From: Candidatus Aenigmatarchaeota archaeon
GTDB lineage: Archaea > Aenigmatarchaeota > Aenigmatarchaeia > QMZP01 > QMZT01
DNA length: 24,855 nt
Direction: 5' to 3'
Assembly (NCBI GenBank): GCA_041489155.1
Contig: JBGPQP010000013.1
Span: 1-24,855 of the forward strand
The position numbers and the translations under genes were made by a program. Below the pieces are notes generated by a model, which was not told the origin of the DNA, did not search any database, and saw only the letters and a program-made list of their open reading frames with translations. Numbering within the stretch: the stretch's first letter is position 1; every line of letters begins with the position of its first letter. Positions 1-18,730 of this stretch are shown here, in pieces.

Positions 1-3000
1 CACGTAATTGCTAGAGTTAGCATCGTAGTACTGTGTGTGGTTCACAACACCTGCCTTCCACCACTGCTTTCCTGTATAATAAGTAGCGCAGTCAGGCTCG
101 AAAGTTCTGTTCATATAGCCCGAGCCTGACGAAGTCGTGTCCTGCGCAGGTCCCCAGCTGACGCCGTCTGTCGTGACCCAGAATTTCTTGTACGTGGGCG
201 GCACGACATTGAGACCGTCAACCGCGTCCTTCACGCTCACCGAAAGCTCCGTGGTGTTCGTGCCTGTTCTGGTCACGTTGGACTCGTTGCCTCCCACAAG
301 GCTTATGTTCAGACCTCTCTTCGTGACCTCAAGCGAATGATTTGCGGTTTCGTAAGTCATGCCTCTCTGGTCAGTAACGTTGAATTTCCAGTACCATATG
401 CCGATATCAGAGGAAAGGTACTTCCTAGTAAGCGTTGCATTATAGCCTACGCGGTCGGAAAGCATCGTGGAGTTTGCGAGTTGCCATGGCCCTGTTGTAG
501 AATTGTATTCCCAGAGCTCGAGCGTGAGCGTATCATCGTCATCGGTAACGTTGACTGAGAAAACGAAGTTCGGTCCGTCCGAAGGTCTTGCCCAGTACGT
601 CGATGACGGGCTGACAATCTCGTTGTTCAAAAGAGGCGAAACCTGTCTGAAGAATGAGTCAACGAATTTCGTCGAGTTCGGATTGAAATAAGTCCTCGTA
701 CTGGAAACGGTGATGTTGTACTGGCCGCCAGGCAGGCTGGTCATGTTGAGGGTGCAGTTGTAGCGCCCGTTACCTAGTGCCTCAACAGTTGTGCAGTTGG
801 CTAAATACGAATCATGTGAAACTGATATGTTCATGTTCGCGTCAACGACCGGCGTTCCGCATTCGTATTCGTCGCTTATATTTATGTATATACTGACGTT
901 CTCGCCGCTAAGGCAGTAGCTCTTGCCGCTGCACGTGGCATTGTCGAACGTGTGTATCAGTTCGCCGATTATCGTGAGGTTCGAAAGGAAGGTCATGTTT
1001 TCCTCGTCGTAGCAGGAATTGTTTATGGTGCCTGCTGTCCAGTTGTGGAGGCCTACTGCGTATCCGCAGCCCGGATTGAAGTTGAACCTGAAGTAGCCGC
1101 TGCTGTCCGTCGTGTTCTGCAATCCTGAATCATAGCCTGCGCTGTCGTTGTACTTCACCCAGAACTTGCCGTCAACGCTCGCACCAACATAGGTTTGGTT
1201 GTCGGTGTCATAGACCCTTATTATTATGGTCTCATTCGTATACTGCTCCCCTGAGCGGTTGACTATGTTGTTGTCGCCGTCAACAAGCGAGATGCTCACG
1301 TTGTCTTTTTCAACAGTATAGCTCTGCGTGCTTGACGAACCAGAAAGGTCGTACTGGCCGCTGTAGTTCATGTCGGTGCCGTTGAACTTAAAGTAATACG
1401 TGTTGCCAACGAATGAGCAATTATGGAAAAGCGAGAAATTCACGTATTTGTTGGCGCAAAGCGTGCAGTTGGTCGTGTTTCTGAGTACCCATGGCTCCGC
1501 TCCGGTGTTTGATGTCCAGAACCATACAGTGACATTGTTGTAGTCCACGTCGTCGACACGGACGCTGAAATTGGTCGGCGCGCCCCAGCCTTCGCGGACG
1601 TATGAGGGGCTGGTGAATGTCGGGGCGTTGTTTACGTAGCTCTGCAGCCAGACGACATCGTCGTGCATTTCCGTGTCGTTATTGTAGTAGCCGGTGGAAT
1701 TCATCTGTATCCACACGCCGTATTTGTAAACAGGCGTCTCCTGCGTCGTCGTCCAGTTGCAGCGATAGGTGCCGTTGTTGTAATCGACTATGTCGCCGCA
1801 GGTATAATTGTAGGTCGCGTTCTTGACCATCAGGACTGAGATGTTTAGCCCGGGGATAAGGTTACCGCACTCATCGGTTATGTTTATGTATACATAAACG
1901 TTGTCTTCCTGATGCTTCGTATAATTGTCAGGCCTCATGCTGGCATTGAGATTGCCATAAACAGTGATGTTGAACGATGGCGAAATCGCAGTTTTGTAGC
2001 AGGTGTCCGAGGTTGCCACGAAGCCGTACCAGTACTGTTTTCCTACCTCGTAATTGCAGTTACCTTTAAGCGAGAAGTCGAAATTGACGTGACCTGTGCC
2101 GCTCGTTGTATTCATAGCTTCTGTAAGGTTCTGCGAATTGGTATTGGTCCTATTGGTGCTTATGTTAAGATAAACGGTCGCAGCAGAGTCGGCGACGTAC
2201 ATCTTCCTGTCAGTGTCGTTGACTATAAGCGACAGGCTGAAGTTGCCGCCTGTCCTGTTGACCTTGGTCTCGTTGCCTGCGAAGTATAGTATCTGCACGT
2301 CGTTTTTCTCGAGAACATAGCTGTTGTCGTTGTTCACGTAATCCCCTAGCGCAGTCTGGGTCTTTCGTTCGTTTCCCATGTCATCCGTGCCTGTGAACTG
2401 GAAATAGAAGGTCGGGTTGCCGGTCAGGTTGGCGCACATATACGTCTCGTTCCAGTAGAAGGTGTAGTTCGTGCACGAGGTGCAGTTCTGCGTCAATCCG
2501 ACCTGCGAATAATCGACGCCGTATTTCTTCCTCTCGAAAATTACGGTTACGTTGTCCCCGGCCTCATCCGTCACGTTGACGCTGAAATTATAAAGAGCGC
2601 CCCAGCCGTCAAGCCTCGGCGTAACGTTTGCGTACTTCAGTATTGGTATCGTCTTCAGGTAGAAGGTGTAGGGAGGTACTCTTGTTGTCTGGTTCGGATA
2701 GTAGTAGCTCTTGACAGGGTTCGGTTGGTATGTCTTGTTGGCCCACATGGTCACGTTATACCAGCCCTCCGCCACTCCAGTGGAAATCCAGTCGCCCTGA
2801 TAGAAACCGCCTCCGAGATTCGGGACGTTAGAATAATTGTACCTGTAATTCCTGACGCTCATGTTGAACTCGACATTCGCGTAGTCAAGCGTGTTGCCGC
2901 AGTCGTCCTTGACCTGACCCTGCACGAATATGTTGTCACCCCACGTGTAGTTGTTTGAGCCGTCGGGCTTGATTATCGTAAGATTAAGGTCACCCATGAC

Positions 3001-5445
3001 GTCGAGAACGTATGTGCTGCTTATGTTCGGGTAATAGCAGCTGTCACTTGCATTCATCTGCGCGCGCCATATCTGGTTTCTCGCTTCGTATTCATAGTCA
3101 CCCTCGCTGTCGCATGTGGGATTGAAGCTCCTGTTTATGTAACCCGAAGCGTTTGTAGCCGCATTCAGGCCGTCATCATAAGCATAATAGTTCCAGCTCA
3201 CCCATATGGTCGCGTTGGCGCCTGACGTGAGGTATGTCTTGTTGCTCTCATCGTAAAGCCTGAGAACCAGAAGATCCTCCTGCGCACCGCTTCTGTTGGC
3301 TATGGTATTGTTGCCACGCACGTGCTCAAAGATGACGGAGTCGGGGAGCACGCCGAAGGTGCCGTATGTGCCCGTGCCGTTATCGTTATTGGCGTTGTCT
3401 GTGACGTTGAACCTGAAGCGCGCCGATGAATTTATGTCTGAGCAGTTGAGGCGGACATCTGTGAAGTTTATCTTTGTCCATAAAAGACACGCAGTGCAAT
3501 TTTTTGTTTCAATATTTTTCCACCCGGTTCCCGTGTCGAACTGGAGCGTGACATTCACGTTTCCTCCTTCTATCCCGTGGTCCTTGACCTCGACCGAGAA
3601 ATTCCATCCGCCTCCCCACCCCTTGCTGTCGGTGGTCTTGTTGTTCACGGTCATGTTGGCGAAAAGCGGAGGCCAGTTCAGGGATATCTCGACTTTGAAA
3701 TTTTCGGAAACGTTGTACTTGTAGCAAAGATCGCTTGCATGTATGTAACCTCTCCACGTCATGTTGCCTGAACTGAATCTGTCGTCAGGCGTGAAGGTAA
3801 CGTTTGCATAACCGCCCGCATCCGTTCGCGTGTCGTTGACGTAAACAAAGCTGTTCATGTCGCCTTGGATGGTCGTCACGTTGAAGTATATCAGCGGATG
3901 CTCGGAGGTTGGTTTTGGGTAGATATAGCTTCCGTTATCCGTATCGCGAACCCTTAACTTGAAGGGCACCGCCGTGCCTGGGGTGATGCTGTTGTTGCCT
4001 TCTATGTATTCCACTATCGTGTTGGCCTTCTCCATGTTTATGGTATCGCTGTTGCCTATGTAGTCGCCGGCAGCGACTGATGTATCGTATGTGTAAGTTT
4101 CCCCATCCTCTGCACTGAAGTAGAATTTGATGGTTTTGTCTGCATAGGTTTCGCACGGCATGATTGTGTTCAGTTCTATGTCATTCCATGCAAGAACGAG
4201 GTTTGTGCAGTTGATAGGGTTGGAGGGGCAGTTGGGGCCGCAGCAGCGGCTGCCGTAAGATTCCTCGAGCGCGCCAACAGCAAGCCAAAGCGTAACGTTT
4301 ACCGTGTCGTCGAGGTTGTCCGTTATATTGACCGAGTAGTTCCTCACCTTTGACCATGATTCGGTCCTGTAAGTCGCATTCGCATCCTTGAGCATGGGAA
4401 CCGTCCTGAGTTCAAATGCATTCGTTTCGGTCACCGTATCGTTGTAATAGTTGTTCTCGTATGATTTCATGGTGAAGTTGTACATGCCATTCGTTCTGTT
4501 GAGCGTCTGCCAGATGCAGGTGTAAACGTTCTCGCCTATCCTCTGGATGTTCGGGCAGAGATAACTCGCTCCTGCAGTAGAAAGATTGAAGGTCACGTGG
4601 GTGGTGTCGATTTTCATTGGCTCTTCGCAGAAGTTGTAGATATACGTCGTTATAGAAACGTTCGCCCTGCCCTGTTGTATAATTGTTCCGCCAGTCGGCG
4701 CTACGATTGTGTTTATGATTTCGCCTATTGTCGTGAAATTATAATAGCCGTACTGGCTGGCTTCGGCGGTCGAGTTGGTCTGCTTGTAGCAGACTTCGTC
4801 TGAGTTTACCTTAACGTACCACCAGTGCGGTCCTACTTCGTACTCTTCCTCTGTGTAAGGCGTCGATTCGTTGTCGCAGTGGTCTGCTGCGGTAAAGTTG
4901 TAAGTTATGTTACCGCCAGCACTGGTATCAAATACCTGGCCGCTGTCCCAGAGAATCGTACCTCCAAGCGTGCCCAACTGCGAAATGTAAAGAGTTGTGT
5001 TGAGGCCCGAAAAATAACTTCCGTTCTCATCCCTTATCCTCAGGTGAAGAGTGAGATTCGTTCTCTCGGACGTGCGGTTGGCGATTGCGCCCGGCCCGTG
5101 GCCGGAAAGTATCTCGAATATGACATTGTCCCTAGTCACATTGAAGTAGCCGATGGGCGTTTCTTCCATGAAGTATTTCGGGTCCTCTATCTTTATCTTG
5201 TACTCGTAAGACTTGTCGGCATCGGTACATGTGAAGTGCTGGATGAACTTTATGCTCTGGTTCGTAACCGAGTTGTTGGCCTGTGTGGAATTTATTATGT
5301 TCCATATGCTTGTATTGGCCTGTCTTGACCAGAGGGTCACGTTTATGCTGTCGTTCCTCTGGTCGTACACGTTCAATGAGAAGTTTATCGGCTGGCCCCA
5401 CTGACTTTGCGCAGGATTGACGCTGGCATTGGAGATTTTCGGCGG
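1..5445 (-). repeat. Six degenerate protein-level repeat units within the giant ORF (last one partial)
   Basis: A recurring unit start (P-x-I/L...W-G...N-F-S-V-N-V-x-D) has its Pro codon at 5442, 4398, 3669, 2646, 1623 and 636, giving spacings of 348, 243, 341, 341 and 329 codons. Confidence 0.85.
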
Positions 5446-8400
5446 GGTGTTGTACCTCACTTTGAAGAACAGCTGCTGCGGCTCAGTGGCAAGGCCTCCC
5501 CATTCCCAGAGGTATTTGAATTGCGTGACCTTGACTATCTCGGCTGCTGCGCTCGTGTCAGACCTTACCTCTAGTTTCAGGGTTTTGCTGGGCTGGGTCG
5601 TGTACTGGTTTGTGTCAAAGTCTGTCGGGTCATAGTCGTATACGGTTTCCGTACCTGACCCGCCTATCGTGGGACGATATTTGTTCCATATTTCTATCCT
5701 TCCGGTAAGGCTGTCGTTGTATAAATATACCTGCCCGCCCTCGCCTGTTTCAAGGGTGTTTCCGTCCAAGCCCCAGACCACCCTTGTGGTAAACTCCGTG
5801 ATCCTTGGGTTGCTAACACCACTAGGCGCCTGCTCTATCCCGATGGTGAAATTGCTTGACGGCCTTCCCGTTGCGTCTCCGGGGTCGGAATACGTCGAAC
5901 TGTCAGTGTATTCGATGCTGCCGGACTGCTCGGAATATGTCGTGGGGGAGAGATCGTATTCCTGCGCGTCGCTCGTGCAGTTGAGGCGGAAGGTGAAGTT
6001 CTTGGCCGCGCCAACGGGGACGTTTTCATCAAGAGTCCAGTTGATGGTTCTTCCGGACGTATACCATACTCCGGTGCCGTTGTTAGTGACATTGCACGCC
6101 TGCGGTATTTTCACGCTTATGTTCCATGCGCCCGAGGCCGCGGTCGCCCTGCCCCTGTTCGTCCCCTGAATTATGAACCACTGGGAGATGTTCGGGGTCA
6201 CGACCTTTGAATAGTTGCTTTCATTAAGCGTAAGCGAGAAGTCGAAATGGGCATAGTCGAACGTGTCGCTGGTGACCCCATAGTAAGACTGCTCGGCATC
6301 GGTGTACTCGCTGCCCGCCTTGCCCTGATAAAGCAGGGACCATGCGCCGAAATTTGAGCTCGTCATGGTTGTCGGGGAAAGCAGAGTGTAGTTAAGCATG
6401 ACAAACTCGTTGACGCCCAGATGGCTTATGAACCACGTTATTGTCGTGATGCCTGTAACAGGGTCGACGCTCGTACTCGAATTGCCGGAAGTGTAACTCA
6501 CGGACCATCCGTTGGGGACGGTTTCATTGAAATATATGTTTTCGGCAGGTCCGCACTCCGCATTGTGCAGGACGAATTTGGGATATACGTTCGTGTAGTT
6601 GCCAACTTTCACAGGCATTTCCCTGTAGACTTTTATATAAGGCGACGGAATGTAGAGCGTCCTGTTTGTCACGAAGGCTTTGCTGTAATTATTAGGGTCC
6701 TTATAGGAGACATTGAAGTAAATGATATACAAACCTTCGGTCGAAGGCACGGTCACGGAAAAATTGGTAATGTTCGACGAGCTGCCCGAAACGTTCATGC
6801 GCTTTGAAGACGGTGAAACCGTGAAATCCGAAGGCGTGATGTGGCTTATGTTGAACTCTATCGTTGAGCTCCAGTTGTTCTGTATGCTGACATTTAGCTG
6901 AATCGTCTCCCCTAGACAGGCGCCGTAGTCCGGAATAAGCATTCTGGATACGTAAACAACCTCGAAGAGGTTGTAGCTCATCGTCGTCGACGAGCCGCTG
7001 GCCCACACTGCAGTGACGTTGACCGTGTAGTTGGAAGGCAGCCATCCAGCGGTGGATATGTTCGTGAAATTTATAACGTAGGACGATGAAGCCGGCCAGG
7101 TTATATTTTTTGTCAGGTTGTAAACAAGGGAATTTTGACTGTCTGTTATTCTGAGCGTAAGGTTACCGTTGATGCTGGAGCCAAGCGTATTGGTCATATT
7201 GACCCTTACGTCTATCGGGTCCATGACCTCAAACATGGTGCCATTGATGTTGGAGATGTTGTTGTAAACTTTTGTTTCGGTTGCGTAAAGGTCGGGTACG
7301 GTGGCATTGAGGTTTATGAGGTCAAGCTTGAATGTATAGTCATAAAGTCTGGAATCGTTGTGAAAATAAATCCTGACCTTCCAGTTGTTGGTCGCGTTCT
7401 TGTAATACTGGGCATTGGTCGAGATGTTTCTCGATATGAGGACGTCTGACCCTGATGTGTTGTACGCCTGCGATATGAAGCCGTCGCCTGACGTAGGCCA
7501 TTCATCGTTGACAAAATCGTAAAGCTGTATCTGTATCGTGCCGTTTATCTCGCTCTGGAACTCGACAGAAAGGTTCAGGGCATCCCAGGGCTTGCTTTCC
7601 GCGTCGCCCACAAATTCTATTGTGGAGTAAGAATTGGTGACCTCCCCGTATTTGTCGAAATCCAGCCACATCTTGTAGCCTTCGTTTGTGCCGACGTTGT
7701 TGCTCAGCTGCGTCGTGTTCGTGAAGAGCGTTCCCTCGCTGTCGAGCATTATGTCAAAGCCAGCGAAGCTTGTGTCGTTCATGGTCCAGCCGAGCGCTTT
7801 GATGTCACCAGCGACGTTCCTCGGGTTCCTAACGAACTGTATGACCCTTGGTATGCCGGTCGTTACCGTTGTCGTTTCCCCTGCCCACCCCCCTGTCCAG
7901 ATGTTATAGCTGAGGCTGGAGGCGCCTTCCGAATATATCAGGACGCCTTCCTCAGTTCCGTCCGGATACCACACGAATGACTCGGTCGTGCCTTCACTAT
8001 CGTCTCCGCCCGACGTCCCAGTGTGCTCTGTATGTTCCGTGTCCCATGCTGAGCCGCTCCAGAACCTGGTGTTGAGGTCGTTCCCATCGTCGTGAACGAC
8101 CATCATGATGCTGTCGGTTCCCGGCCTCGTTCTGAGAGTTATCCAGTTGGGGTCGCCGCCCATGGGCGATGCATAAACTGGTAATCGGTTTGACCACGTG
8201 CCGTTCCATATCCTGTAAGACATGTAGGCGGTGGTCCCGTTCCCCCACACGAACATGGCGTCGCCGCTGAGTTCTTCCCAAGCGGCGTCGAAATCCTGCT
8301 CGTCCTGGCCCGCCGCGGTGTCATCGAGTGTCACGTTGTCGATGATGTTGGTCCCGTTCCATATCGCGCCGTAATGGACGTAGTTGTACGGATCGAGTAC

Positions 8401-11400
8401 CATTATCGCTATCTTGTCGCTGTTCGGGTCCGGCTCGGCACCTATCCACGTTATGTTGCCATTGACCGAGTTCGAGAAGTCGAAGGTGTACGCCTGTGAC
8501 CACATGCTGCCGTTCCATATCCTGTACCTTATGGCACTGTCCGTGGCATCGCTCCTGTAGAAAAGCAGGGCCCTGCCACTCAGAGTTTCGTACGCGATGT
8601 CGAACGCCTTAACCCTTAAGAGGGTTCTGACTCCTGTCGCGATAGTGCTGTTCTGGTTCCAGCTGGTTCCGTTAAAGACATAGACGTACGTGTTGTTGTC
8701 AACGCCTTTTATGGCGGCAATCTTCTCGTACTGCCTTTCCCTCAGGGGGCATGAAACGACCATGCCTATGTCATACGCCGTGCCCATCGTTGACATCTCG
8801 CCTTGAGAGCCCCACGAGAGCGTTGCTCCGTCCCATCTTCTATATTTCGGATACGTGTCCCCGCTGCCGTCCGTTGAGATGTAGATTATTGTGGCGCTGG
8901 TGGACGAGCTGTCGTCGAAATCGTAGGTATTCAGGAATTCCATGTATGTGTTGTCGTTGGTCCTGAGGTTGCTCACGCTCCCTGCCTTCAAAGTCCCGTT
9001 TACGACGGCATAAGACGAGACGTTATAGAGGCTGTAGCTTGGGTCGACTGCAAGCATCCATGGCCTGGCCTCCGCGAATTCCTTTTCTGAGAAGAATTCC
9101 AAATAGGAAACCTTCGAGGGTCCCATCGAATAAAGATAAGGCCAGACGGGCGGAGTGTTGAAATAATAAGTAAGACTGGATCCGCTTGGGACGTTTTCCC
9201 AGGTAAGAGCCTTGAAATCTCCATTCTCCGTCACCACCGCATCCGTTCCTGAAACATCGAACTCCTTTGGCACGTATTCCGTGAAGATGAACGTGTTTGC
9301 GGAGGTGTACGAGTTAACCGTTATGGTCGATTTGAAGGGTCCTCTTCCCGGGTCTATAGTAACCGGCGTATTTCTCACGATGTCGAACTCGTAATATGAT
9401 TTTGCAACGAAATATGAATTTATCTCAACGTCGGGCAGGTCGTTCCTTTTTGCCTGCAGCAGATATTGCCCCTCCCCGCCGACCGTGTAATTGGCAACGT
9501 AGACTCCTGGCTGTATCTCAACGATTCCACCTTCGGACGTTGAAATGGAGGTTATTTCATTGTCTGGGCCTGTTATGTATAAAGCAACATCCGCCCCGGA
9601 AACCAGATACCCTCCCTTGTCCAGCACCACAATCAGGATTTCTGCGGTTTCCCCCGGCCTGTAAATGCTTTTCCTCGTGTTTATCGAGATCAGGCCCCAG
9701 TTGAACCATATCTCCTCTTTGCTTTCACCTGATTCGATGACTAGCTTGTAGGCGCCTGCCCTGAAGTTTTTCTTCGCGTCGAGCTTTATGCTGAAAGCCC
9801 CGTCCGCCTTTTCAACGACCTCAGGCTGGATATCAAGCCTTTCTCCGTTCTGCGTTTCGACATAAACATCAGTTATTTTGCCTTCATTTTCCTTTACAAC
9901 GTATGTTTGTTGTGAAAGCTGAGGAACCTTCCATGAAACTGAATCGTCTAGGCCGTCGTAATCAGAATCCATGAATTTTACTTCATGTTCCGGGTCATTT
10001 GTCACATCGGTCTCTTCAGTGAAAATGGCATCGCTGCCTTCCTTCCAGAAAACTTCTACGCCGCCCGAAATCTGCACGTCAAAAGTTGGTTCTTCTTCAA
10101 AGGAGAAGGATTTTTTGCCAGATAACTCATTTATTTCCGTCTCGGTCTTTATGCTCTCCGGTATTTCAGTTGACACCTGAACATCTTTGTAGTGTTCCTC
10201 ATCAAAATCGCTGCTTATCCTGATCTCTTTCCGCCACCCTTCCGTTGAGTATTCCTCTGTTTCTTCCTTCTGCGGTGCCGGGGTTTCGTAGTCTATCTCA
10301 TATTTAGCCGCGGCCTCTGACTCTATCCTTTCTTCCTTCCATGTGCTTATTTTTTCTCTTATCCTCTGCAGTATTTTTACCGTCCTGCTCCCTTTCTGTT
10401 CGCCGGTCTCAATTTCCAGTCTGCCTTTTATGTCCTTGATTTTTCTTAGCATGACATTGTCGGCCTTCTCTGGAAGAGTAACCTGCAGCTCTATGTTTTC
10501 AACAGCCATCTTATTGGGGTTTTTGACAGTAATTATTTTCTTCCACTCGACAGGTTCGCCCACCTCTGCAACACCCTGTATGGTTTCTGCTTCTATGGTC
10601 ATGTTTTCCAGCGGGCAGTTTACGTGAACGGGAAATTCCTGCGCGACAGCAGAAGTTGCGCTCTCGGCAGAAACCTTTAGCGTGTAGTTACCGCAGGCAC
10701 CCGCCTTTGCGTCCCATTCGAGAGCGAATGAGGCATTTTCTTCGATGAATGGGATTACCAAGGTCTTGTTTTCTATTTCGAACGAAACAGGTGCTGACAC
10801 GTTTATGCTTATGTTTTCTGATGAGCCATAAAGTGAGCTTACGTTTGCTTTTATCTTGAAAGTTTCCTGCAGGTTTATTGCGCTTGGCAAAGCGAAAACG
10901 TAAAGCTTAATTTCAGATACATGGGTTAGCGAAATGTTGGTCCCGTTCAGCGGCGCTGTTATGTTAATGGTTTCGTTTGCAGGCTCTGCGATATCTGTTT
11001 CGTTCAGTGTTTCGTCACCATCGACAGTTTCGTTTCCGGTTGTTTCATTCTGAAAAATGGGCAAATCTCCAGCTGGCACAAGCGTATCGTTGGTTGCGTT
11101 CTGCTCAAAAGTTTCATTTGTGATATTCAAAAGGAAGTCACTGATGAAGTCCTCTCCGATTTCTGAGGTGACTTCGTTGTTCGCTATTACGTAACCCTCG
11201 ATCGACAGAGATGAATTTTCAGTCGTGTTAGTCAGGTTGTAAGCGGTTATTATGGCCGCCGGCGCCAGAACAAGGAACATAAAAACAGCGATGAGCTGTA
11301 TCTGCCCGATGCTGCCGAGGCTTGATTTCATGTCATGGCCCTGAAGGCGTTTTATAGCCTGTCTCTCCTTTTTTCCCACGCAACCGTTTTTCAGGTAGCA

Positions 11401-11580
11401 TAGCCTCGCAGGCCCTATCTCTCTCTCGTATATGATTTCAGCTCCCCTGAGCTCGTAAACGTACTTTGTCACCGTGTGCCTGTGCAGCTTCGTTAAATCA
11501 GAAATAGCGGTGATGGTGAGCCCTTCAGGGTGCTTCTTGAGGGCTTCTATTATCTGTCCGCGAGCTGAACCCACGTCCAT
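1..11580 (-). CDS. Giant surface protein (>=3860 aa, 3' end outside window): N-terminal wHTH, hydrophobic helix, Glu/Lys-rich module, beta-propeller, then ~340-aa Ig-like repeats
   Basis: Manual translation from ATG at 11580 gives MDVGSARGQIIEALKKHPEGLTITAISDLTKLHRHTVTKYVYELRGAEIIYEREIGPARLCYL...GQIQLIAVFMFLVLAPAAIITA... and the same frame is still open at base 1 (...WKAGVVNHTQYYDANSSNYV). The ORF track lists no long ORF in this frame, as expected if there is no stop in the window. N-x-S/T sequons are very dense. Confidence 0.93.
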   Translation of the reverse strand, partial: MDVGSARGQIIEALKKHPEGLTITAISDLTKLHRHTVTKYVYELRGAEIIYEREIGPARLCYLKNGCVGKKERQAIKRLQGHDMKSSLGSIGQIQLIAVFMFLVLAPAAIITAYNLTNTTENSSLSIEGYVIANNEVTSEIGEDFISDFLLNITNETFEQNATNDTLVPAGDLPIFQNETTGNETVDGDETLNETDIAEPANETINITAPLNGTNISLTHVSEIKLYVFALPSAINLQETFKIKANVSSLYGSSENISINVSAPVSFEIENKTLVIPFIEENASFALEWDAKAGACGNYTLKVSAESATSAVAQEFPVHVNCPLENMTIEAETIQGVAEVGEPVEWKKIITVKNPNKMAVENIELQVTLPEKADNVMLRKIKDIKGRLEIETGEQKGSRTVKILQRIREKISTWKEERIESEAAAKYEIDYETPAPQKEETEEYSTEGWRKEIRISSDFDEEHYKDVQVSTEIPESIKTETEINELSGKKSFSFEEEPTFDVQISGGVEVFWKEGSDAIFTEETDVTNDPEHEVKFMDSDYDGLDDSVSWKVPQLSQQTYVVKENEGKITDVYVETQNGERLDIQPEVVEKADGAFSIKLDAKKNFRAGAYKLVIESGESKEEIWFNWGLISINTRKSIYRPGETAEILIVVLDKGGYLVSGADVALYITGPDNEITSISTSEGGIVEIQPGVYVANYTVGGEGQYLLQAKRNDLPDVEINSYFVAKSYYEFDIVRNTPVTIDPGRGPFKSTITVNSYTSANTFIFTEYVPKEFDVSGTDAVVTENGDFKALTWENVPSGSSLTYYFNTPPVWPYLYSMGPSKVSYLEFFSEKEFAEARPWMLAVDPSYSLYNVSSYAVVNGTLKAGSVSNLRTNDNTYMEFLNTYDFDDSSSTSATIIYISTDGSGDTYPKYRRWDGATLSWGSQGEMSTMGTAYDIGMVVSCPLRERQYEKIAAIKGVDNNTYVYVFNGTSWNQNSTIATGVRTLLRVKAFDIAYETLSGRALLFYRSDATDSAIRYRIWNGSMWSQAYTFDFSNSVNGNITWIGAEPDPNSDKIAIMVLDPYNYVHYGAIWNGTNIIDNVTLDDTAAGQDEQDFDAAWEELSGDAMFVWGNGTTAYMSYRIWNGTWSNRLPVYASPMGGDPNWITLRTRPGTDSIMMVVHDDGNDLNTRFWSGSAWDTEHTEHTGTSGGDDSEGTTESFVWYPDGTEEGVLIYSEGASSLSYNIWTGGWAGETTTVTTGIPRVIQFVRNPRNVAGDIKALGWTMNDTSFAGFDIMLDSEGTLFTNTTQLSNNVGTNEGYKMWLDFDKYGEVTNSYSTIEFVGDAESKPWDALNLSVEFQSEINGTIQIQLYDFVNDEWPTSGDGFISQAYNTSGSDVLISRNISTNAQYYKNATNNWKVRIYFHNDSRLYDYTFKLDLINLNATVPDLYATETKVYNNISNINGTMFEVMDPIDVRVNMTNTLGSSINGNLTLRITDSQNSLVYNLTKNITWPASSSYVINFTNISTAGWLPSNYTVNVTAVWASGSSTTMSYNLFEVVYVSRMLIPDYGACLGETIQLNVSIQNNWSSTIEFNISHITPSDFTVSPSSKRMNVSGSSSNITNFSVTVPSTEGLYIIYFNVSYKDPNNYSKAFVTNRTLYIPSPYIKVYREMPVKVGNYTNVYPKFVLHNAECGPAENIYFNETVPNGWSVSYTSGNSSTSVDPVTGITTITWFISHLGVNEFVMLNYTLLSPTTMTSSNFGAWSLLYQGKAGSEYTDAEQSYYGVTSDTFDYAHFDFSLTLNESNYSKVVTPNISQWFIIQGTNRGRATAASGAWNISVKIPQACNVTNNGTGVWYTSGRTINWTLDENVPVGAAKNFTFRLNCTSDAQEYDLSPTTYSEQSGSIEYTDSSTYSDPGDATGRPSSNFTIGIEQAPSGVSNPRITEFTTRVVWGLDGNTLETGEGGQVYLYNDSLTGRIEIWNKYRPTIGGSGTETVYDYDPTDFDTNQYTTQPSKTLKLEVRSDTSAAAEIVKVTQFKYLWEWGGLATEPQQLFFKVRYNTPPKISNASVNPAQSQWGQPINFSLNVYDQRNDSINVTLWSRQANTSIWNIINSTQANNSVTNQSIKFIQHFTCTDADKSYEYKIKIEDPKYFMEETPIGYFNVTRDNVIFEILSGHGPGAIANRTSERTNLTLHLRIRDENGSYFSGLNTTLYISQLGTLGGTILWDSGQVFDTSAGGNITYNFTAADHCDNESTPYTEEEYEVGPHWWYVKVNSDEVCYKQTNSTAEASQYGYYNFTTIGEIINTIVAPTGGTIIQQGRANVSITTYIYNFCEEPMKIDTTHVTFNLSTAGASYLCPNIQRIGENVYTCIWQTLNRTNGMYNFTMKSYENNYYNDTVTETNAFELRTVPMLKDANATYRTESWSKVRNYSVNITDNLDDTVNVTLWLAVGALEESYGSRCCGPNCPSNPINCTNLVLAWNDIELNTIMPCETYADKTIKFYFSAEDGETYTYDTSVAAGDYIGNSDTINMEKANTIVEYIEGNNSITPGTAVPFKLRVRDTDNGSYIYPKPTSEHPLIYFNVTTIQGDMNSFVYVNDTRTDAGGYANVTFTPDDRFSSGNMTWRGYIHASDLCYKYNVSENFKVEISLNWPPLFANMTVNNKTTDSKGWGGGWNFSVEVKDHGIEGGNVNVTLQFDTGTGWKNIETKNCTACLLWTKINFTDVRLNCSDINSSARFRFNVTDNANNDNGTGTYGTFGVLPDSVIFEHVRGNNTIANRSGAQEDLLVLRLYDESNKTYLTSGANATIWVSWNYYAYDDGLNAATNASGYINRSFNPTCDSEGDYEYEARNQIWRAQMNASDSCYYPNISSTYVLDVMGDLNLTIIKPDGSNNYTWGDNIFVQGQVKDDCGNTLDYANVEFNMSVRNYRYNYSNVPNLGGGFYQGDWISTGVAEGWYNVTMWANKTYQPNPVKSYYYPNQTTRVPPYTFYLKTIPILKYANVTPRLDGWGALYNFSVNVTDEAGDNVTVIFERKKYGVDYSQVGLTQNCTSCTNYTFYWNETYMCANLTGNPTFYFQFTGTDDMGNERKTQTALGDYVNNDNSYVLEKNDVQILYFAGNETKVNRTGGNFSLSLIVNDTDRKMYVADSAATVYLNISTNRTNTNSQNLTEAMNTTSGTGHVNFDFSLKGNCNYEVGKQYWYGFVATSDTCYKTAISPSFNITVYGNLNASMRPDNYTKHQEDNVYVYINITDECGNLIPGLNISVLMVKNATYNYTCGDIVDYNNGTYRCNWTTTQETPVYKYGVWIQMNSTGYYNNDTEMHDDVVWLQSYVNNAPTFTSPSYVREGWGAPTNFSVRVDDVDYNNVTVWFWTSNTGAEPWVLRNTTNCTLCANKYVNFSLFHNCSFVGNTYYFKFNGTDMNYSGQYDLSGSSSTQSYTVEKDNVSISLVDGDNNIVNRSGEQYTNETIIIRVYDTDNQTYVGASVDGKFWVKYNDSAGYDSGLQNTTDSSGYFRFNFNPGCGYAVGLHNWTAGTINNSCYDEENMTFLSNLTIIGELIHTFDNATCSGKSYCLSGENVSIYINISDEYECGTPVVDANMNISVSHDSYLANCTTVEALGNGRYNCTLNMTSLPGGQYNITVSSTRTYFNPNSTKFVDSFFRQVSPLLNNEIVSPSSTYWARPSDGPNFVFSVNVTDDDDTLTLELWEYNSTTGPWQLANSTMLSDRVGYNATLTRKYLSSDIGIWYWKFNVTDQRGMTYETANHSLEVTKRGLNISLVGGNESNVTRTGTNTTELSVSVKDAVDGLNVVPPTYKKFWVTTDGVSWGPAQDTTSSGSGYMNRTFEPDCATYYTGKQWWKAGVVNHTQYYDANSSNYV

Positions 11581-11720
11581 AGAACCTGTACCAACCCTAT
11601 AGGATTACCTTGTACATTAGTGTACAACGCTAATATCATACATAAGTGTCGAAGTATATATAGCATTGGTTAATAGGGTAATAGACAAAGGTTTAAATTG
11701 TCGATCGACAATACAATAGA
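11581..11720. promoter_or_regulatory. Divergent promoter region with two TATA-like boxes and two operator-like inverted repeats
   Basis: TTGTACA-ttag-TGTACAA at 11610-11627; TATATATA at 11655-11662 (likely minus-strand TATA); purine run plus TTTAAA at 11692-11697 (plus-strand BRE/TATA); perfect 16-bp palindrome ATTGTCGATCGACAAT at 11697-11712. Confidence 0.75.
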
Positions 11721-12188
11721 ATGATTGATTTTCTGAGGGCCAGGAGGGTGGGGAAGGGCAAGAAGGATTACCTTAGTGAGCTGTCAAAAATCGCTAAAGG
11801 GGAACGCGAAAAGATTCTTAGGGAAAAAATAAGGGAAATCGTTTTTGAGGAACTTCAGGGCTGCGGGATAAACAAACGAATTGACGACATTCATGCTTCC
11901 AATAAAAACCTTGAAAAAAATCTTGAAAATCTGAAAAGTTCCCTGGTGCCTTTGAGTCGGTCGAAAACCGACAGTATAAGGAAAATCAAGATAAAGAGGA
12001 TGATAATCGAGCTGCTTAGAAAAGAAAAACGCATGACTGCGTCGGATGTCAGCGTTAAGCTGGACCTTTCCAGGACGAGGTGCAGCGAGTACCTCACGGA
12101 ACTCGAGAAATCGGGTGCAGCACGCGGTTTGGTCGTGTCAAGGCAGAAGTTCTACGAGCTCACCGAACAAGCGAATGATAATCAGTGA
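11721..12188 (+). CDS. Putative transcription regulator: N-terminal coiled coil plus C-terminal winged HTH
   Basis: The C-terminus IIELLRKEKRMTASDVSVKLDLSRTRCSEYLTELEKSGAARGLVVSRQKFYEL fits a wHTH pattern. The heptad-like stretch NKNLEKNLENLKSSL precedes it. Its stop overlaps that of the convergent gene. Confidence 0.88.
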   Translation: MIDFLRARRVGKGKKDYLSELSKIAKGEREKILREKIREIVFEELQGCGINKRIDDIHASNKNLEKNLENLKSSLVPLSRSKTDSIRKIKIKRMIIELLRKEKRMTASDVSVKLDLSRTRCSEYLTELEKSGAARGLVVSRQKFYELTEQANDNQ

Positions 12189-15100
12189 TTTTTAAGCCTC
12201 TCGTTGAGAACGGACACGTTTCTGTTTATGTCAGAAAGCCTGTTGTTGCGATTCCTGATCAGCAGTTCGTAATCGATTCTGCTCATGGAACCTTTCTTGA
12301 AATAATTGGTCTGGATGTCGGTTATGGACTTCTTTATTTTTTCCCTTTCGGCTTCCAAGCTTTTAATTTCAGACCTGCATTTTTTCACATGCGCCCTTTC
12401 CCTCAGCCTGAAACCGATTACCACAGATGCCAAGGCAACAACCAGCAATACCCAAAGGTAATCCATGATGGTTTCCGAAATCCAGCTTCTTTGCTGTACC
12501 CTTTTCAGGGATTCCTCGGCCTCGATTTTATCCAGCCTGTTCATGGCTTCTAACATCATGGCTTCAGCGTCGACGTAGTTGTCAAGCGTGAATTCGGAAA
12601 CCCCGCTGTCGAAAATCTCTGAGGCAGATGAGGTATCGTAACCTAGGGATGAAAGCTCATAAATCTTCGTTTCAACGCTGTTTATCAGTTCGTTGGTTTT
12701 TATTGCCTTTTCCTTTATATCAAGAACCTTACTGGCGAGAGATTCCGCGCCTTCGTAATACCCTTCGCCGTAAAGTTTTTTGGCTTCGGAAAGCGTGTCG
12801 TTAGCGTAGGTTACGCCGAAGCCCATGGCTTGCATTTCTGCTATTGTTTTTTCTGCAATTTCTATTGCTTTCGCGGCTTTGTCGTTTTCCGCGGCATTGG
12901 CCATTCCCGCAACCAGGAATAAAACAAGCATCGCAGCAGCAGCCTTGGGCAGCGAGGTCCCTTTTTTTGTTTTGCTGTTTTCTGTTCTGAGATCTTCAGT
13001 CATGCTTTGTATCTGGAACAATTCGTTTTTTGCATTTTCCATAAGTCTGCTGTAATGATCTCTTCCAAGTTTTCCGTGAAGGAAGTAGCTGCTCTGGGCA
13101 TCGGATATGGAATTTCTGATTCTTTTTTCCTCGTTAGTCAGCAAAATGACGGCTTTTTCATGGTTGACCATATCCTTCAGTTTGAATAGGGTATCGATTC
13201 TTGCTTTACTTGTTTTCGCAAAACTGTTTTCGTATCTTTCCATCATCTGCCTGTATTTATCCGCGCCGATTTTGCCTTTTGCATATTCGTTCTGAAGCTC
13301 CAGAATCAGTTTCTTTATCATGTTATCCTCTACGCTAAGCAAATCAAGTTTCCGGTTTAGGGCGGAAACGGACATTCTTTTTTTGGCCTTTCTGGCTCCG
13401 AACACAAAAACCAAGACAAGCAGGATAATCAGCCACCAATAGTTGTAAACGATTATCAGATAGCCTGCGGTTCCTGATTCGAAGGTGTACAGGAGCGTGG
13501 CGCTCTCAGCCCTCTCGTTAGCTCTCTGATACTCGCCTCGCTGGAACGCGGACTTGGAAAGGAAAAGCATTTTCTCTGTTTCCGGCAGATTCACGCTTTG
13601 GTTTTTCATGATGCCGATGTTTTTTTCAAGGTCGTTTATTTTGTTGTCGAGTTCGAAGGCAAGATTTTTGGCTTCTACCACGCTTTCAGAGAGTTCCTTG
13701 ACCTTGTCGTAATTGCCTTCGTCAAGCGACTTTTCTATTTCGTCGATAATTTCTTCCAGTTTGCTTTTTTCTAAACCCGACTTCTCCATTTCGAGTATGG
13801 ATTCCTTTGCAGCTTCATAATACTGGAGGGTTTTGTTCTCTATGAACCTGTGGGTTATGAGCGAGAGTGTTGATATTTTCACGGCACTGGTGTTTTTTGA
13901 AGCCTCGACAAACTGCCCTCTGACCGTAACGTTCAAATCGTATCTGTTGTTAACCGCATAACTGGGGGCCCGTATTTCGATTTCGAAGTATTTTGTTTCA
14001 CCGTATTTTATTGAGCTGATATATGGCTGCGCAATCTTCATGAATGTCTGCGGGTAACCGGAAAGTGACAGGTAGACGTTTTTCAGTTCCGTTCCAATTA
14101 CCTTATTTTCGACTCCTATATTCAGCGTCTTGTTTTCCCCGCGGTTTATGTCAAGCCTGCCCGGGAAGGTCAGAATTATCTCGTAATTCTTTTTTTCGGC
14201 GGGTAGCGCGAGGTCAATGCTTCCTCCGGTGTTACCTCCAGTGTTACCTCCCGAAGGGATGGAGCAGTCGTTGTCCGTGACGTAGGAACACCCTACACCA
14301 CAGACGTCGTCCAGATTGTTGCAAATGACCGATACATTCAAAGATGCGTTAGCGGGAGAGTTATTCGAGCTGTTGGTATTAACGTATAAGGAAGATACCA
14401 CAGCATTCGCGTTTGAGCTTATGTAAACGGTTATATTGTTCCAGCTAACGGAGCCATTGCTCAGGTTGCCCGCAAAATAATCCAGATTCCCCGACGTGTT
14501 TGACCAGCCGGAAGGCAGTGTCCAGTTTATCCATACATTTGCGGCGGTCTCGTTGCCTATGTTTCTCACCTTTGCGCTGTAATTTACCCCTCCGCTGCTT
14601 TGCTGAACAATATTTTCATAATTCTCAATGCTGACAATCAGGTATGGACCGTTCCATGAGGAAATGATGGTTGCATTCAGTGTTACGCTGTATGGGTCGG
14701 CATTTGTAGTGGTGGCATTCACGGTTATCCGTAGCGGATATATTCCCGGCTCAGAAGGAGAGGTTACATTGATGTTTATATGCTCTTTCCCCTTTGCTGG
14801 AATATCGAAACTGTTTGGATCCGATATGTTGAAATACGTGTTAGCAAAATTCGATGATATTCTGAAGTTTAACGGATAATCCCCGGTGTTGTTGATGACA
14901 ATTACACTCAAACTTCCGTTTGTACTAAACATTATATTCTTTTCTTCAAGACTTCCTGGGGAAACATTCCACGAGTGGTCATAATCTACTGATATATTGT
15001 ATTGCTGGCTGGTTGCGTTATGCCCCAATACGTCGCTTGACCATATTCTGTAGTCCCATGTGTCTGGAGGGAGTGGCACAGAAAAGGAGGCATTCCATTC

Positions 15101-16336
15101 ATCCGAGCTCATGTTGCTCATATTGACATTATCCCACGTTGAAACGCCTGATCGCTTGAATTGAAATATGGCAGAGCCAACACCACTTACGTCGGTTACG
15201 TTCGCAATTACGCTGATGCTCATATTGGGGTCTATGTCATCCTCGCTTGAAGGCGAAAGCATGATGTTGTTCAGCACAGGCGAGCTGGCTGCGTCGACGT
15301 AAAACGTATAGTTGGAAGACCAAGAACTGTTTGATTCGTTATCATGCGCCAAGCATGCCCATTTATAGGCGCCGTCGGGTATGCCGCTTATGGTCCAATT
15401 GACAGATTCGTTATAATGGTCAGCAGCACCTCTGTCATAGGACGCGGTTATTTCCTGTTCGCCCAGTACCCTGTTGGTTATCCTAAGCTCATCTAACACG
15501 ACGCTTTTCTGGTTACCGCCGGTGTTGTTGCTGCCTAAGTAAAGATTTGTGCCGAAAACCGACCCATAGCTGCTGTACTCGTTGCCACCAGGAGTCATAG
15601 AGCTGTTGGAACCGTCCACAAACATGTCCACTCTCCTTCCTCCGCCGAAATCGCCGTAAAGGTCCCATAAGACAGCGACGTGATGCCATTCGCCTTCGTG
15701 CCAGCCCAACGGATTGTCTGTATAAATCTCGGCCACGCCGTAGTTGTCATCGTCATAAAAAGTGAAATACAGCACGTCGGATGGACCTGGCTCTATAAAA
15801 ATTTCCATCCTATTACCTCCGGCATCTCCGTAGCCGTCAGTTGAAAGCAAATATACATTTTCTCCCCAGTCAGACGTGTTGTAATTCGGGCTTATCCAGA
15901 ATTCCAGGGTTCCCCTGCTGTAGTTTATGTTACCCGAAGTCGGGTATGTCAGGATATCAGAGCCGTTTATCAGCACGCCTTTCATAAACCTGCTCTGGAC
16001 AATATCAGTCGATGTGTTGGTGCCCGTTTCGCCATCCTCACACGTATAGTTGTTGAATCTGCACATGAGCATTGTGTCGGAGCTTTTATCAAGTTCCATG
16101 ATATTTTTCGTGTTGTAGATAGCGAAAGACCCGTTTATATCATTGAACAAGGAAACATTGTAAACTTTTTCATCGTCGCTCACGTTGCATACAAATGTGA
16201 TGTTATTTGTTGATGAAACGTTGCCGTCAGATGGGGAAACAAGCGTTACGGTGGGAGGGGCGGCGAAAACTAATACCTGAAATAAAAATATTAGAATAAT
16301 GGCTGGCAGTAAGATCAATAATGCCTTTTTAGCCAT
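12182..16336 (-). CDS. 1384-aa membrane-anchored surface protein: signal peptide, Ig-like domains, LamG/concanavalin-A-like domain, duplicated helical-TM-coiled-coil C-terminus
   Basis: Start reassigned to MAKKALLILLPAIILIFLFQVLVFA (ATG at 16336, Sec signal peptide). LamG motifs GTLEFWI, WHHVAVLWD, MFVDG and LDELRITNRVL are present. Three further hydrophobic segments lie near the C-terminus. Confidence 0.9.
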   Translation of the reverse strand: MAKKALLILLPAIILIFLFQVLVFAAPPTVTLVSPSDGNVSSTNNITFVCNVSDDEKVYNVSLFNDINGSFAIYNTKNIMELDKSSDTMLMCRFNNYTCEDGETGTNTSTDIVQSRFMKGVLINGSDILTYPTSGNINYSRGTLEFWISPNYNTSDWGENVYLLSTDGYGDAGGNRMEIFIEPGPSDVLYFTFYDDDNYGVAEIYTDNPLGWHEGEWHHVAVLWDLYGDFGGGRRVDMFVDGSNSSMTPGGNEYSSYGSVFGTNLYLGSNNTGGNQKSVVLDELRITNRVLGEQEITASYDRGAADHYNESVNWTISGIPDGAYKWACLAHDNESNSSWSSNYTFYVDAASSPVLNNIMLSPSSEDDIDPNMSISVIANVTDVSGVGSAIFQFKRSGVSTWDNVNMSNMSSDEWNASFSVPLPPDTWDYRIWSSDVLGHNATSQQYNISVDYDHSWNVSPGSLEEKNIMFSTNGSLSVIVINNTGDYPLNFRISSNFANTYFNISDPNSFDIPAKGKEHININVTSPSEPGIYPLRITVNATTTNADPYSVTLNATIISSWNGPYLIVSIENYENIVQQSSGGVNYSAKVRNIGNETAANVWINWTLPSGWSNTSGNLDYFAGNLSNGSVSWNNITVYISSNANAVVSSLYVNTNSSNNSPANASLNVSVICNNLDDVCGVGCSYVTDNDCSIPSGGNTGGNTGGSIDLALPAEKKNYEIILTFPGRLDINRGENKTLNIGVENKVIGTELKNVYLSLSGYPQTFMKIAQPYISSIKYGETKYFEIEIRAPSYAVNNRYDLNVTVRGQFVEASKNTSAVKISTLSLITHRFIENKTLQYYEAAKESILEMEKSGLEKSKLEEIIDEIEKSLDEGNYDKVKELSESVVEAKNLAFELDNKINDLEKNIGIMKNQSVNLPETEKMLFLSKSAFQRGEYQRANERAESATLLYTFESGTAGYLIIVYNYWWLIILLVLVFVFGARKAKKRMSVSALNRKLDLLSVEDNMIKKLILELQNEYAKGKIGADKYRQMMERYENSFAKTSKARIDTLFKLKDMVNHEKAVILLTNEEKRIRNSISDAQSSYFLHGKLGRDHYSRLMENAKNELFQIQSMTEDLRTENSKTKKGTSLPKAAAAMLVLFLVAGMANAAENDKAAKAIEIAEKTIAEMQAMGFGVTYANDTLSEAKKLYGEGYYEGAESLASKVLDIKEKAIKTNELINSVETKIYELSSLGYDTSSASEIFDSGVSEFTLDNYVDAEAMMLEAMNRLDKIEAEESLKRVQQRSWISETIMDYLWVLLVVALASVVIGFRLRERAHVKKCRSEIKSLEAEREKIKKSITDIQTNYFKKGSMSRIDYELLIRNRNNRLSDINRNVSVLNERLKNH

Positions 16337-16375
16337 ATTTATTAAATAAAATTCATGGATTATAAAGAAAAAATT

Positions 16376-16816
16376 ATGTTTAAACAGGGGAGAAAAATTG
16401 TTGTTGCGGCCATGCTGATTTTTTTGTCCCTTGTTGTTTTTTTGATACTGATTCCTAAAACAAATGACATAAACAAAATAGAAATTAGCGAGCCAGAAAT
16501 CAGCATTGCGATGGACAAGGAAATCTACTATTCCTCGGAGGAGATGAATATCAATGCGAGCATTTTGCTCCCGGAGGAAGGTTATGTGGTCCTGAAAATT
16601 TACGGCATTCCTGACAGCAGGGGAAACTACAGAATAAACGAAGAAAGAAACATAAGCGCTGGGCCAGAAAGAACCGATGAGGCTTTCGTTTTCAGCATGC
16701 CGAGCTGTTACGGCTGCGCGGGCGTTTCTCCGGGAAATTATGAAATCGTAATGGAGCTTGTCAGCAACGGAAAAATAATAGGAAACTGCTCGAAAACGGT
16801 TAAACTTGAAAAATAA
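16376..16816 (+). CDS. Small membrane-anchored Ig-like protein with CxxC (start 16376 preferred over 16355)
   Basis: N-terminal TM helix (IVVAAMLIFLSLVVFLILI), an Ig/MG2-like start ISIAMDKEIYYSSEEMNI, and MPSCYGCAGVSPGNYEI. The ATG at 16376 leaves room for promoters. Confidence 0.8.
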   Translation: MFKQGRKIVVAAMLIFLSLVVFLILIPKTNDINKIEISEPEISIAMDKEIYYSSEEMNINASILLPEEGYVVLKIYGIPDSRGNYRINEERNISAGPERTDEAFVFSMPSCYGCAGVSPGNYEIVMELVSNGKIIGNCSKTVKLEK

Positions 16817-16883
16817 GCTATTTTTATTCCAGTATAAAGAATTAATATGCCGACGCATACGCAGTATGCGTTATTACAAGATT

Positions 16884-16957
16884 GGGCCCGTAGCTCAGCT
16901 GGATAGAGCGCTAGCTTGCGGAGCTGGAGGCCGCGCGTTCGAATCGCGCCGGGCTCG
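16884..16957 (+). tRNA. tRNA-Arg(GCG)
   Basis: Acceptor stem GGGCCCG/CGGGCTC; D arm GCTC/GAGC; anticodon stem CTAGC/GCTGG with loop TTGCGGA (GCG at 16918-16920); T loop TTCGAAT; discriminator G; CCA not encoded. Confidence 0.96.
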
Positions 16958-16991
16958 TTTGCATTTTTCTGGAATCAAAGGACTCAAAGAA

Positions 16992-18325: not shown

Positions 18326-18730
18326 ATGAGGGCCCAGACTGCTTTCGAGTTCATGGTAATAGCTATATTCGTACTTGCTTTTCTTACTCCCATCTGGATC
18401 TATCTGGTACAAATACAAACGGAAACCAACGACCAGTTCACGTTGTCATATGCCAAGAACGCAGTAACCCAGATAGCGAAGAAGGCCGACCTAGTTTATT
18501 CGCAGAGGATGGATGCAAGGATAAGATTGGAAATCTATATACCGCGGGGCGTGCAGGATATAAACATCTCTGGAAACGAGATAAACATGAAGATATTGTC
18601 ATCTTCGGGAACAGTAGACGTTTTTGCCACGTCGATCGCACAGCTCCAGGGAAATCTTCCAACCGAAGAAGGGCTCTATATGGTCATGCTTAAGGCCGAA
18701 GGGGACTACGTAAACGTGACGCTTGCTTGA
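18326..18730 (+). CDS. Type IV pilin-like protein (class III signal peptide)
   Basis: MRA|QTAFEF followed by a hydrophobic helix, with E at +5. Confidence 0.88.
   Translation: MRAQTAFEFMVIAIFVLAFLTPIWIYLVQIQTETNDQFTLSYAKNAVTQIAKKADLVYSQRMDARIRLEIYIPRGVQDINISGNEINMKILSSSGTVDVFATSIAQLQGNLPTEEGLYMVMLKAEGDYVNVTLA

Follow-up and report, generated by a model that had tools for sequence, protein, structure and literature searches.

What is a DNA-binding domain doing at the head of a giant surface protein? The question is raised by a stretch of 24,855 nucleotides from a Candidatus Aenigmatarchaeota archaeon (assembly GCA_041489155.1, contig JBGPQP010000013.1; the whole stretch is hereafter called the window), which represents the complete contig C13 of a 1.13-Mb genome assembled into 39 contigs. 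Positions 1–11580 of its reverse strand hold an open reading frame (ORF) encoding at least 3,860 residues, with no stop codon up to the contig end, and a small gene (11721–12188, forward strand) departs in the opposite direction, the two ATG codons lying 140 bp apart. An original prediction, made from the DNA letters, had read the first residues of the giant ORF as a compact winged helix-turn-helix domain joined to an adhesin-like ectodomain and facing a second winged-helix gene, and had proposed that the protein carries its own cytoplasmic regulator. Our comparison of homologous loci identifies the giant ORF as the product of two genes fused in frame, one for a membrane-targeted regulator and one for a giant surface protein, and places it in a regulatory cassette that recurs across the phylum.

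The chain opens with a winged-helix head (residues 1–66; 11383–11580), supported by domain matches, AlphaFold2, Foldseek and identity to orthologues. It is followed by a basic, presumably cytoplasmic linker with six Lys/Arg (residues 67–92; 11305–11382), which includes Met84 (codon 11329–11331), and by a hydrophobic helix (residues 93–114; 11239–11304) recognized by hydropathy and by its conserved flanking junctions. Residues 115 to ~390 (10411–11238), homologous to the ectodomains of short family members, comprise a sequon-rich stalk and an Ig-like domain; alignments assign residues 1 to ~390 to the regulator gene and residues from ~429 onward to the surface-protein part. No stop codon separates head and helix. 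A hydropathy scan of the giant ORF detects one hydrophobic helix (residues 94–112), and the first 26 residues past it are acidic, contain no Lys or Arg and carry the earliest N-x-S/T sequons, the density of which is 5.3 per 100 residues over the entire ORF. Because the basic linker precedes the helix and sequons occur only after it, an N-in topology is supported, with the head predicted to be cytoplasmic and the remainder outside; the anticipated order of basic linker, single helix and sequon-rich ectodomain is confirmed by the scan and the residue counts. Relatives of the giant protein at NCBI are annotated only as "hypothetical protein, Candidatus Aenigmatarchaeota archaeon". Four further contigs of the genome (C25, C29, C32 and C39) each consist of one open frame throughout, homologous to the repeats of the giant, so the giant gene was probably broken up by the assembly; its ORF on C13 is incomplete.

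Searched alone against Pfam, residues 1–83 match HTH_IclR at 22.5 bits (cut-off 22) and, more weakly, MarR_2, HTH_23 and HTH_11. An NCBIfam search of the head returned only weak matches of the ArsR/SmtB type, and Trans_reg_C (OmpR/PhoB type) gave no match to the head at E-values up to 0.1. The AlphaFold2 model, obtained with a 28-row alignment, contains helices at residues 6–16, 23–30 and 34–46 followed by strands at 50–55 and 58–63, with a mean predicted local distance difference test (pLDDT) score of 91–96 over residues 11–60; a single long helix (70–122) follows the head and spans both the linker and the membrane segment. Foldseek matches of the head include MarR-family repressors, AspA, TFE-alpha and PapI (E-values from ~4e-4 to 2e-3), and a profile of 28 orthologous N-termini, compared with solved structures, picks out in its alignments those of TtgV (E = 0.003) and CodY, both at their winged helices. 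The architecture is not that of a complete MarR protein, as the head comprises a core winged helix of only ~65 residues and MarR_2 reaches 21.4 bits against a cut-off of 27. Identity to orthologues amounts to 76–92% in the head, 59–91% in the helix and 36–53% in the ectodomain (residues 115–390), and the better conservation of head and helix points to selection acting on both. The winged helix modelled at residues 6–63, the Foldseek matches and the profile alignment bear out the compact N-terminal domain of the original prediction; on this modelling, residues 1–66 are a real winged-helix domain with a putative DNA-binding function.

The join of such a head to a membrane helix is shared with relatives. 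A search with residues 1–125 against 1.84 billion representative proteins yielded 251 matches at E ≤ 1e-3, of which roughly the best 40 align through head, linker and helix. We scored the 150 best representatives, defining as tethered those with a head at most 35 residues from the N-terminus and a hydrophobic helix at most 60 residues further on. Tethered proteins number 76 (at least 1,000 residues in 10, 400–999 in 3, 200–399 in 51 and fewer than 200 in 12), free-standing domains of at most 130 residues lacking a helix number 58, and the remaining 16 show other layouts. The genome itself encodes a fused paralogue of 1,736 residues (C4:62630–67837, reverse strand) and two free-standing paralogous heads (C17:6246–6491 and C17:12312–12578, both reverse strand), each of which abuts or overlaps the start of a gene for a signal-peptide protein; the adjoining secreted-protein frames measure 526 and 670 residues from stop to stop. 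Had homologues consistently encoded the domain as a separate gene, the predicted fusion would have been in doubt. For the junction of domain and helix this is not the case, as it is kept in the 76 tethered representatives; however, 58 of the 150 stand free and the two C17 paralogues are split. As a separate observation, the regions upstream of the C17 and C4 paralogous heads contain repeats of their own with a common CATCAATG-type motif.

Among relatives, an ATG start could be set at 28 loci, and at all 28 the reading frame runs unbroken from head to helix; no stop interrupts this segment in the 29 best matches. A stop missed between 11330 and 11400 had been considered a possible flaw; in an independent run on sediment (X3), one contig spans 10900–11570 with zero differences and zero indels, and pieces from run X4 agree. 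Runs X1 and X2 are possible source samples. When aligned, residues 1–386 match a 399-residue protein from another genome of the same genus (G351) at 58.6% identity, and residues 429 onward match separate giant proteins of other genera. By these alignments, the giant ORF is secondary, a gene for a membrane-targeted regulator having been joined in frame to one for a giant surface protein. Open frames no shorter than 1,500 residues that are matched through the helix occur in ten genomes from four families, the longest reaching 14,526 and 14,236 residues, and fusions of regulator and giant recur in at least four families. Within the same genus, the frame in G352 is continuous for 854 residues up to the contig end; the G351 copy (locus L033, G351:C2, 6772–8903) carries two frame shifts, near residues 399 and 490, which may be long-read indel errors, judging from its assembly into 4 contigs.

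The second gene of the pair encodes a soluble protein of 155 residues. It matches HTH_24 in Pfam (1.2e-8, residues 90–132), and its structure model shows a two-helix coiled-coil hairpin (14–47 and 50–75) followed by a winged helix at residues 86–147 (pLDDT above 90 for residues 91–150), confirming the divergent coiled-coil and winged-helix gene foreseen at this distance. A predicted complex of the head (residues 1–92) with this regulator scored 0.00 and was given no weight either way. Of 371 genomes of the phylum, 163 have matches to the head and 135 the small regulator; among the 98 of high quality, the head is matched in 49. At all 30 loci compared, including that of the window, the head gene has a homologue of the small regulator upstream of it in divergent orientation.

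The head gene ends at 242–399 residues in 17 of 29 loci, and in the other 12 it runs without a stop to the limit of the retrieved region. In each of four split loci fetched from other genera, an ORF of at least 3,700 residues lies downstream; it overlaps the stop codon of the short gene in three of them, and in the fourth one gene intervenes. In split cassettes, the N-terminus of the giant consists of a short leader, a G-Q pair and a helix, the last residue of which is small and precedes N-x-T. By these comparisons, the cassette encodes a soluble regulator with a coiled coil, a divergently oriented regulator targeted to the membrane (usually of 240–400 residues) and a giant surface protein. 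Genomes combining a winged helix, a transmembrane helix, a giant ectodomain and a divergent winged-helix neighbour, which the original prediction proposed to look for, were found, namely the ten genomes with fused frames and the divergent homologue at every locus. Its picture of a giant carrying a cytoplasmic winged helix of its own, with a second one facing it, holds for the window; the giant ectodomain is not the defining form of the family, since most members have 240–400 residues and the giant is the next gene. Literature searches, which took in passages of Demey et al. 2023 and of a 2026 survey of archaeal type IV filament systems, turned up neither a giant archaeal surface protein with a DNA-binding head nor a cassette of this kind. 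In one genus (L035, G342:C2), an extra gene (7477–8865) separates the short regulator gene from the giant gene; it encodes a 463-residue two-helix protein with the same G-Q-helix motif, and the giant of G342 has an ordinary signal peptide.

Two distinct palindromes occupy the 140-bp spacer. The first, a predicted operator named here opA (11610–11627; TTGTAC-N6-GTACAA), would lie at about +6 to +23 from the predicted transcript start of the giant gene, the putative TATA-like box of which is at 11655–11662 (reverse strand), at a position conserved in aligned relatives. Directly after this box follows a TCGACA half-site (11647–11652, reverse strand), with a copy at the same position in 22 of 29 intergenic regions by hand count. 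The small regulator has a probable TATA-like box TTTAAA (11692–11697, forward strand) ~26 nt before its ATG, a distance which would imply a leaderless mRNA; a second predicted operator, opB (11698–11711), a perfect 14-bp palindrome of TCGACA-type half-sites, lies between this box and the ATG. A repeat search of 11560–11740 at a minimum length of 10 found nothing, because the palindrome arms are only 6–7 nt long; the palindromes were found by pattern search. All elements of the cassette are present in the window: the divergent small gene, opA before the head gene, TCGACA-type sites and the giant coding sequence.

Both palindromes are rare and conserved in place. Over the 1.13-Mb genome opA occurs once and opB once, compared with means of 0.1 and 0.0 in 10 mononucleotide shuffles; for opA in the window, one occurrence contrasts with an expectation of 0.10. 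The TCGACA hexamer is common by itself (26 copies in the window versus 14.5 expected), so only its conserved positions count. For the tally across loci, operator positions were anchored on residue 8 of the head; the farthest-upstream ATG misplaces the starts in L012, L015, L016 and L020, and L025 has no ATG start. Loci L039 (G271) and L041 (G275), where the domain of the small regulator is part of longer ORFs, were left out. With at most 2 mismatches, opA is present in 29 of 30 loci and in none of 29 control stretches of equal length inside ORFs, and in distant relatives its central six bases are changed, yet remain palindromic. Allowing up to 1 mismatch, opB is found in 15 of 29 loci, and elsewhere TCGACA copies occur at similar positions. 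In the exceptional locus L033 of G351, opA is replaced by another 14-bp palindrome, which could reflect decay or long-read errors atop a real change of operator.

Loci that have lost the head allow the two sites to be assigned tentatively to the two proteins. Five loci contain the small regulator without an intact head: L040, L042 and L043 (G272, G273 and G279), L045 (G078) and L046 (G131); in these variants the head is missing or truncated, but helix, ectodomain and small regulator are retained. Four of the five lack opA, compared with one of the 30 head-bearing loci: in G272, G279, G273 and G078 the coding sequence of the head is absent, the best match to opA has 3–5 mismatches, and the opB/TCGACA sites persist. 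In G078 the opA palindrome has collapsed, and in the three head-less loci of genus g15 opB is exact. The joint loss of head and opA, together with the retention of TCGACA sites, supports the view that the head pairs with opA and the small regulator with the TCGACA-type sites. The original expectation of two regulators acting across a shared spacer gains from the presence of two distinct palindromic sites and from the tracking of opA with the head.

Several observations weigh against this assignment and against the regulatory function that it implies. The Pfam score of the head barely reaches the cut-off (22.5 versus 22 bits), and the promoter elements were identified by visual inspection. In G351, the single exception among the 30 head-bearing loci, the head is intact and opA has 3 mismatches, whereas G131 has a truncated head and keeps opA at 1 mismatch. 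Two lineages, genus g15 and G078, account for all four losses of opA, which hence amount to at most two independent events. A TGTCGA...TCGACA palindrome precedes a free-standing paralogous head on C17, which would fit the opposite assignment. Finally, the recognition helices of both regulators and both types of site are nearly invariant, so no covariation stands behind the pairing of head and site.

We hypothesize, at about even confidence, that the head is a dedicated, membrane-held self-repressor of the giant gene, which forms a unit of two regulators and two operators together with the divergent protein. The head would stay in the cytoplasm as the helix at residues 93–114 takes the remaining chain across the membrane, and a dimer of heads would occupy opA just downstream of the predicted transcript start, repressing the giant gene. 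As a head is present on every giant chain, each chain would deliver one membrane-held repressor head, in a 1:1 ratio. The 155-residue regulator may work through the TCGACA-type sites, namely opB over its own promoter and the half-site beside the TATA box of the giant, and two regulators with two operators could thus provide self-contained control of a surface protein that is very costly to make. The same part would be played in most relatives by a separate membrane-targeted regulator of 240–400 residues encoded just before the giant, the two genes having merged in the lineage of the window.

A doubtful, though possible, alternative to a tethered repressor is release of the head by cleavage, either by a prepilin-type peptidase at the small-residue-Gln junction or by signal peptidase after a conserved Ala, leaving a tethered stub of 113 residues; each giant inserted with success would free or leave behind one repressor, so that transcription would count export. 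The helix indeed starts at a conserved small-residue-Gln junction and ends in a conserved Ala followed by an N-x-T sequon; Q93 and A113 are each at least 90% conserved in the family alignment, and the motif [GAS]-Q-x-[QKRE] followed by hydrophobic residues marks the helix start in 44 of 76 tethered members. The genome encodes two Peptidase_A24 genes, and the 16 pilin-like ORFs gathered from it, 3 of them inside the window, all show [KR]-[GA]-Q before a hydrophobic stretch; the giants of split cassettes, with their leader, G-Q pair, helix, small residue and N-x-T, have a similar start. Free soluble heads in 58 of 150 representatives suggest that the domain can work untethered, which also counts for release. 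However, a position matrix built from the 16 class III N-termini of the genome and scored without positions −3 to +1 fails to part the helix at residue 93 from the background: 428 of the 1,349 helices in the background equal or exceed it, and it scores −7.9, the lowest training value being 5.8. Past the G-Q pair, a class III signal finds no support, the leader being a folded domain of 92 residues and position −2 being uncharged (Ile in the giant ORF; Lys is frequent there in relatives). A signal peptidase I substrate would have a basic n-region, an h-region of ~7–15 residues and small residues at −3 and −1; the basic linker and Ile-Thr-Ala ahead of the sequon would be compatible with this, whereas the hydrophobic stretch of 20–21 residues resembles an anchor more than a cleaved signal. 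We know of no precedent for a folded leader of 92 residues on a cleaved signal. Given the negative matrix test, Ile at −2 and the anchor-length stretch, we take a tethered head as the base case, with release as the main alternative. A specific and rather unlikely form of the latter is that the head is clipped at the small-residue-Gln junction once the giant engages the membrane, each exported chain freeing one soluble repressor that shuts the promoter via opA. If so, the head would act as a molecular counter of export for proteins as long as ~14,000 residues, and the free-standing heads beside secreted-protein genes would be the unfused version of this device.

A head that stays tethered might also be an outside-in sensor of the ToxR/CadC kind, contact or load on the ectodomain altering dimerization and DNA binding of the head and the small regulator being the second arm of a bistable switch. 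The domain order agrees with that of transmembrane transcription regulators as defined by Demey et al. 2023 (PMC10269533), each of the two divergent promoters has its own sites, and the palindromic operators imply dimers. We nevertheless judge sensing unlikely: a fast-evolving ectodomain of ~150 to more than 14,000 residues is hard to reconcile with a conserved signalling path through one helix, and head-less variants retain both helix and ectodomain. That the head does not regulate at all, but ties the DNA or the locus to the membrane in the service of co-translational insertion or of segregation, or has a role unrelated to DNA, appears improbable to us. Foldseek matches to the centromere-binding AspA and to non-regulatory winged helices agree with it, as does the emergence of an N-terminal head long before the chain is completed; on the other hand, the only two matching palindromes of the genome sit in the promoter region of the head gene itself, and opA takes the classic position of a repressor site and co-occurs with the head. 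An artefact, in which a missed stop, a frameshift or mis-assembly joined a small regulator gene to a surface gene starting at Met84, is scarcely credible. Met84-Lys-Ser-Ser does resemble the starts of split-cassette giants and of a secreted protein on C17, two paralogues are split in just this way, and the G351 frame breaks near residues 399 and 490; yet the frame is open in every relative compared, the X3 and X4 contigs are identical without indels, Met84 is not conserved outside the family, and the breaks in G351 may be sequencing errors.

The self-repressor reading can be set beside known membrane-bound regulators. Demey et al. 2023 (PMC10269533) define a transmembrane transcription regulator (TTR) as any protein with a predicted DNA-binding domain and a transmembrane region, report TTRs in 367 of 404 archaeal species, 56% of them single-pass, and mention archaeal TTRs for motility and pilin genes. 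Under this definition the giant ORF would be a TTR, with regulation from the membrane predicted. Neither a giant ectodomain nor a cassette of this kind is mentioned in the passages of that study consulted, although its supplementary tables may list members of the family. What would set the giant ORF apart from TTRs is its pairing with a divergent soluble regulator and with two private predicted operators. Like ToxR, TcpP and CadC, it has an N-terminal cytoplasmic DNA-binding domain, one membrane helix and a C-terminal part outside; unlike ToxR and CadC, it carries a 65-residue MarR/IclR-like winged helix instead of an OmpR-type domain, for which reason it is not of the ToxR/CadC type, and exposes more than 3,700 residues of predicted glycoprotein rather than a small sensor. 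ArnR and ArnR1 of Sulfolobus are membrane-bound helix-turn-helix regulators of the archaellum that have C-terminal helices as anchor and are not known to have a large outside domain; compared by description, they share with the giant ORF an archaeal origin, an N-terminal helix-turn-helix, a membrane anchor and control of a cell-surface structure, the last being a prediction for the giant ORF.

With MarR/IclR repressors and AspA of plasmid pNOB8, the head has in common the order of three helices and two strands, as well as palindromic targets if opA is its site. The dimerization helices of MarR are missing from it, and its linker helix runs into the membrane instead. Archaeal class III signal peptides resemble the junction in their small residue and Gln at the cytoplasmic end of the helix, with Peptidase_A24 genes present in the genome, but differ in having a leader of a few residues rather than a 92-residue folded domain, in a charged −2 position and in a pilin-like helix. 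Export-coupled regulation is known from the secretion of FlgM, and membrane-held factors are freed by proteolysis in SREBP and anti-sigma cascades. By analogy, expression would report in each case the fate of an exported or membrane-inserted protein; sequence or structural kinship with these systems is lacking, and in the giant ORF regulator and cargo would be one polypeptide.

Other genes of the window also encode predicted surface proteins. Convergent with the small regulator gene, a reverse-strand frame (12182–16858, probable start near 16333) encodes a surface protein of ~1,380 residues with Laminin_G_3, NPCBM_assoc and Big_7 domains, the C-terminal part of which alternates hydrophobic helices with long coiled-coil-like stretches; it lies beside the cassette in G352 (L034) too and, in pieces, in G351 (L033). 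Three pilin-like genes with class III signals ([KR]-[GA]-Q and a hydrophobic helix) are found on the forward strand ~6–8 kb from the cassette (18326–18730, 19396–19779 and 19797–20279), and a similar pilin-like gene lies near the cassette of G351 (L033). A forward frame open at the contig end (21694–24855) encodes at least 1,054 residues with an Ice_binding-like domain (PF11999, E = 8e-64). The window further contains genes for tRNA-Arg(GCG) (16883–16958), an SdpI/DUF1648 membrane protein (18749–19399) and peptidyl-tRNA hydrolase PTH2 (20843–21184), all on the forward strand. Elsewhere in the genome, an open frame of 4,465 residues (C2:105053–118447, reverse strand) ends with a hydrophobic helix followed by what appears by eye to be a HerA/FtsK-type ATPase-like tail.

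Ultra-small archaea of this kind devote a large share of a 1-Mb genome to giant surface proteins that change fast and have a presumed role in contact with other cells. The cassette may represent a compact control circuit for such a protein, consisting of two small DNA-binding proteins, two private sites of 14–18 bp and one promoter pair, with one regulator physically joined to the protein under its presumed control. If the head acts as proposed, this arrangement would be a simple natural tie between transcription and the amount or export of one huge product, and membrane-bound transcription regulators would extend from small sensors to giant adhesin-like proteins.

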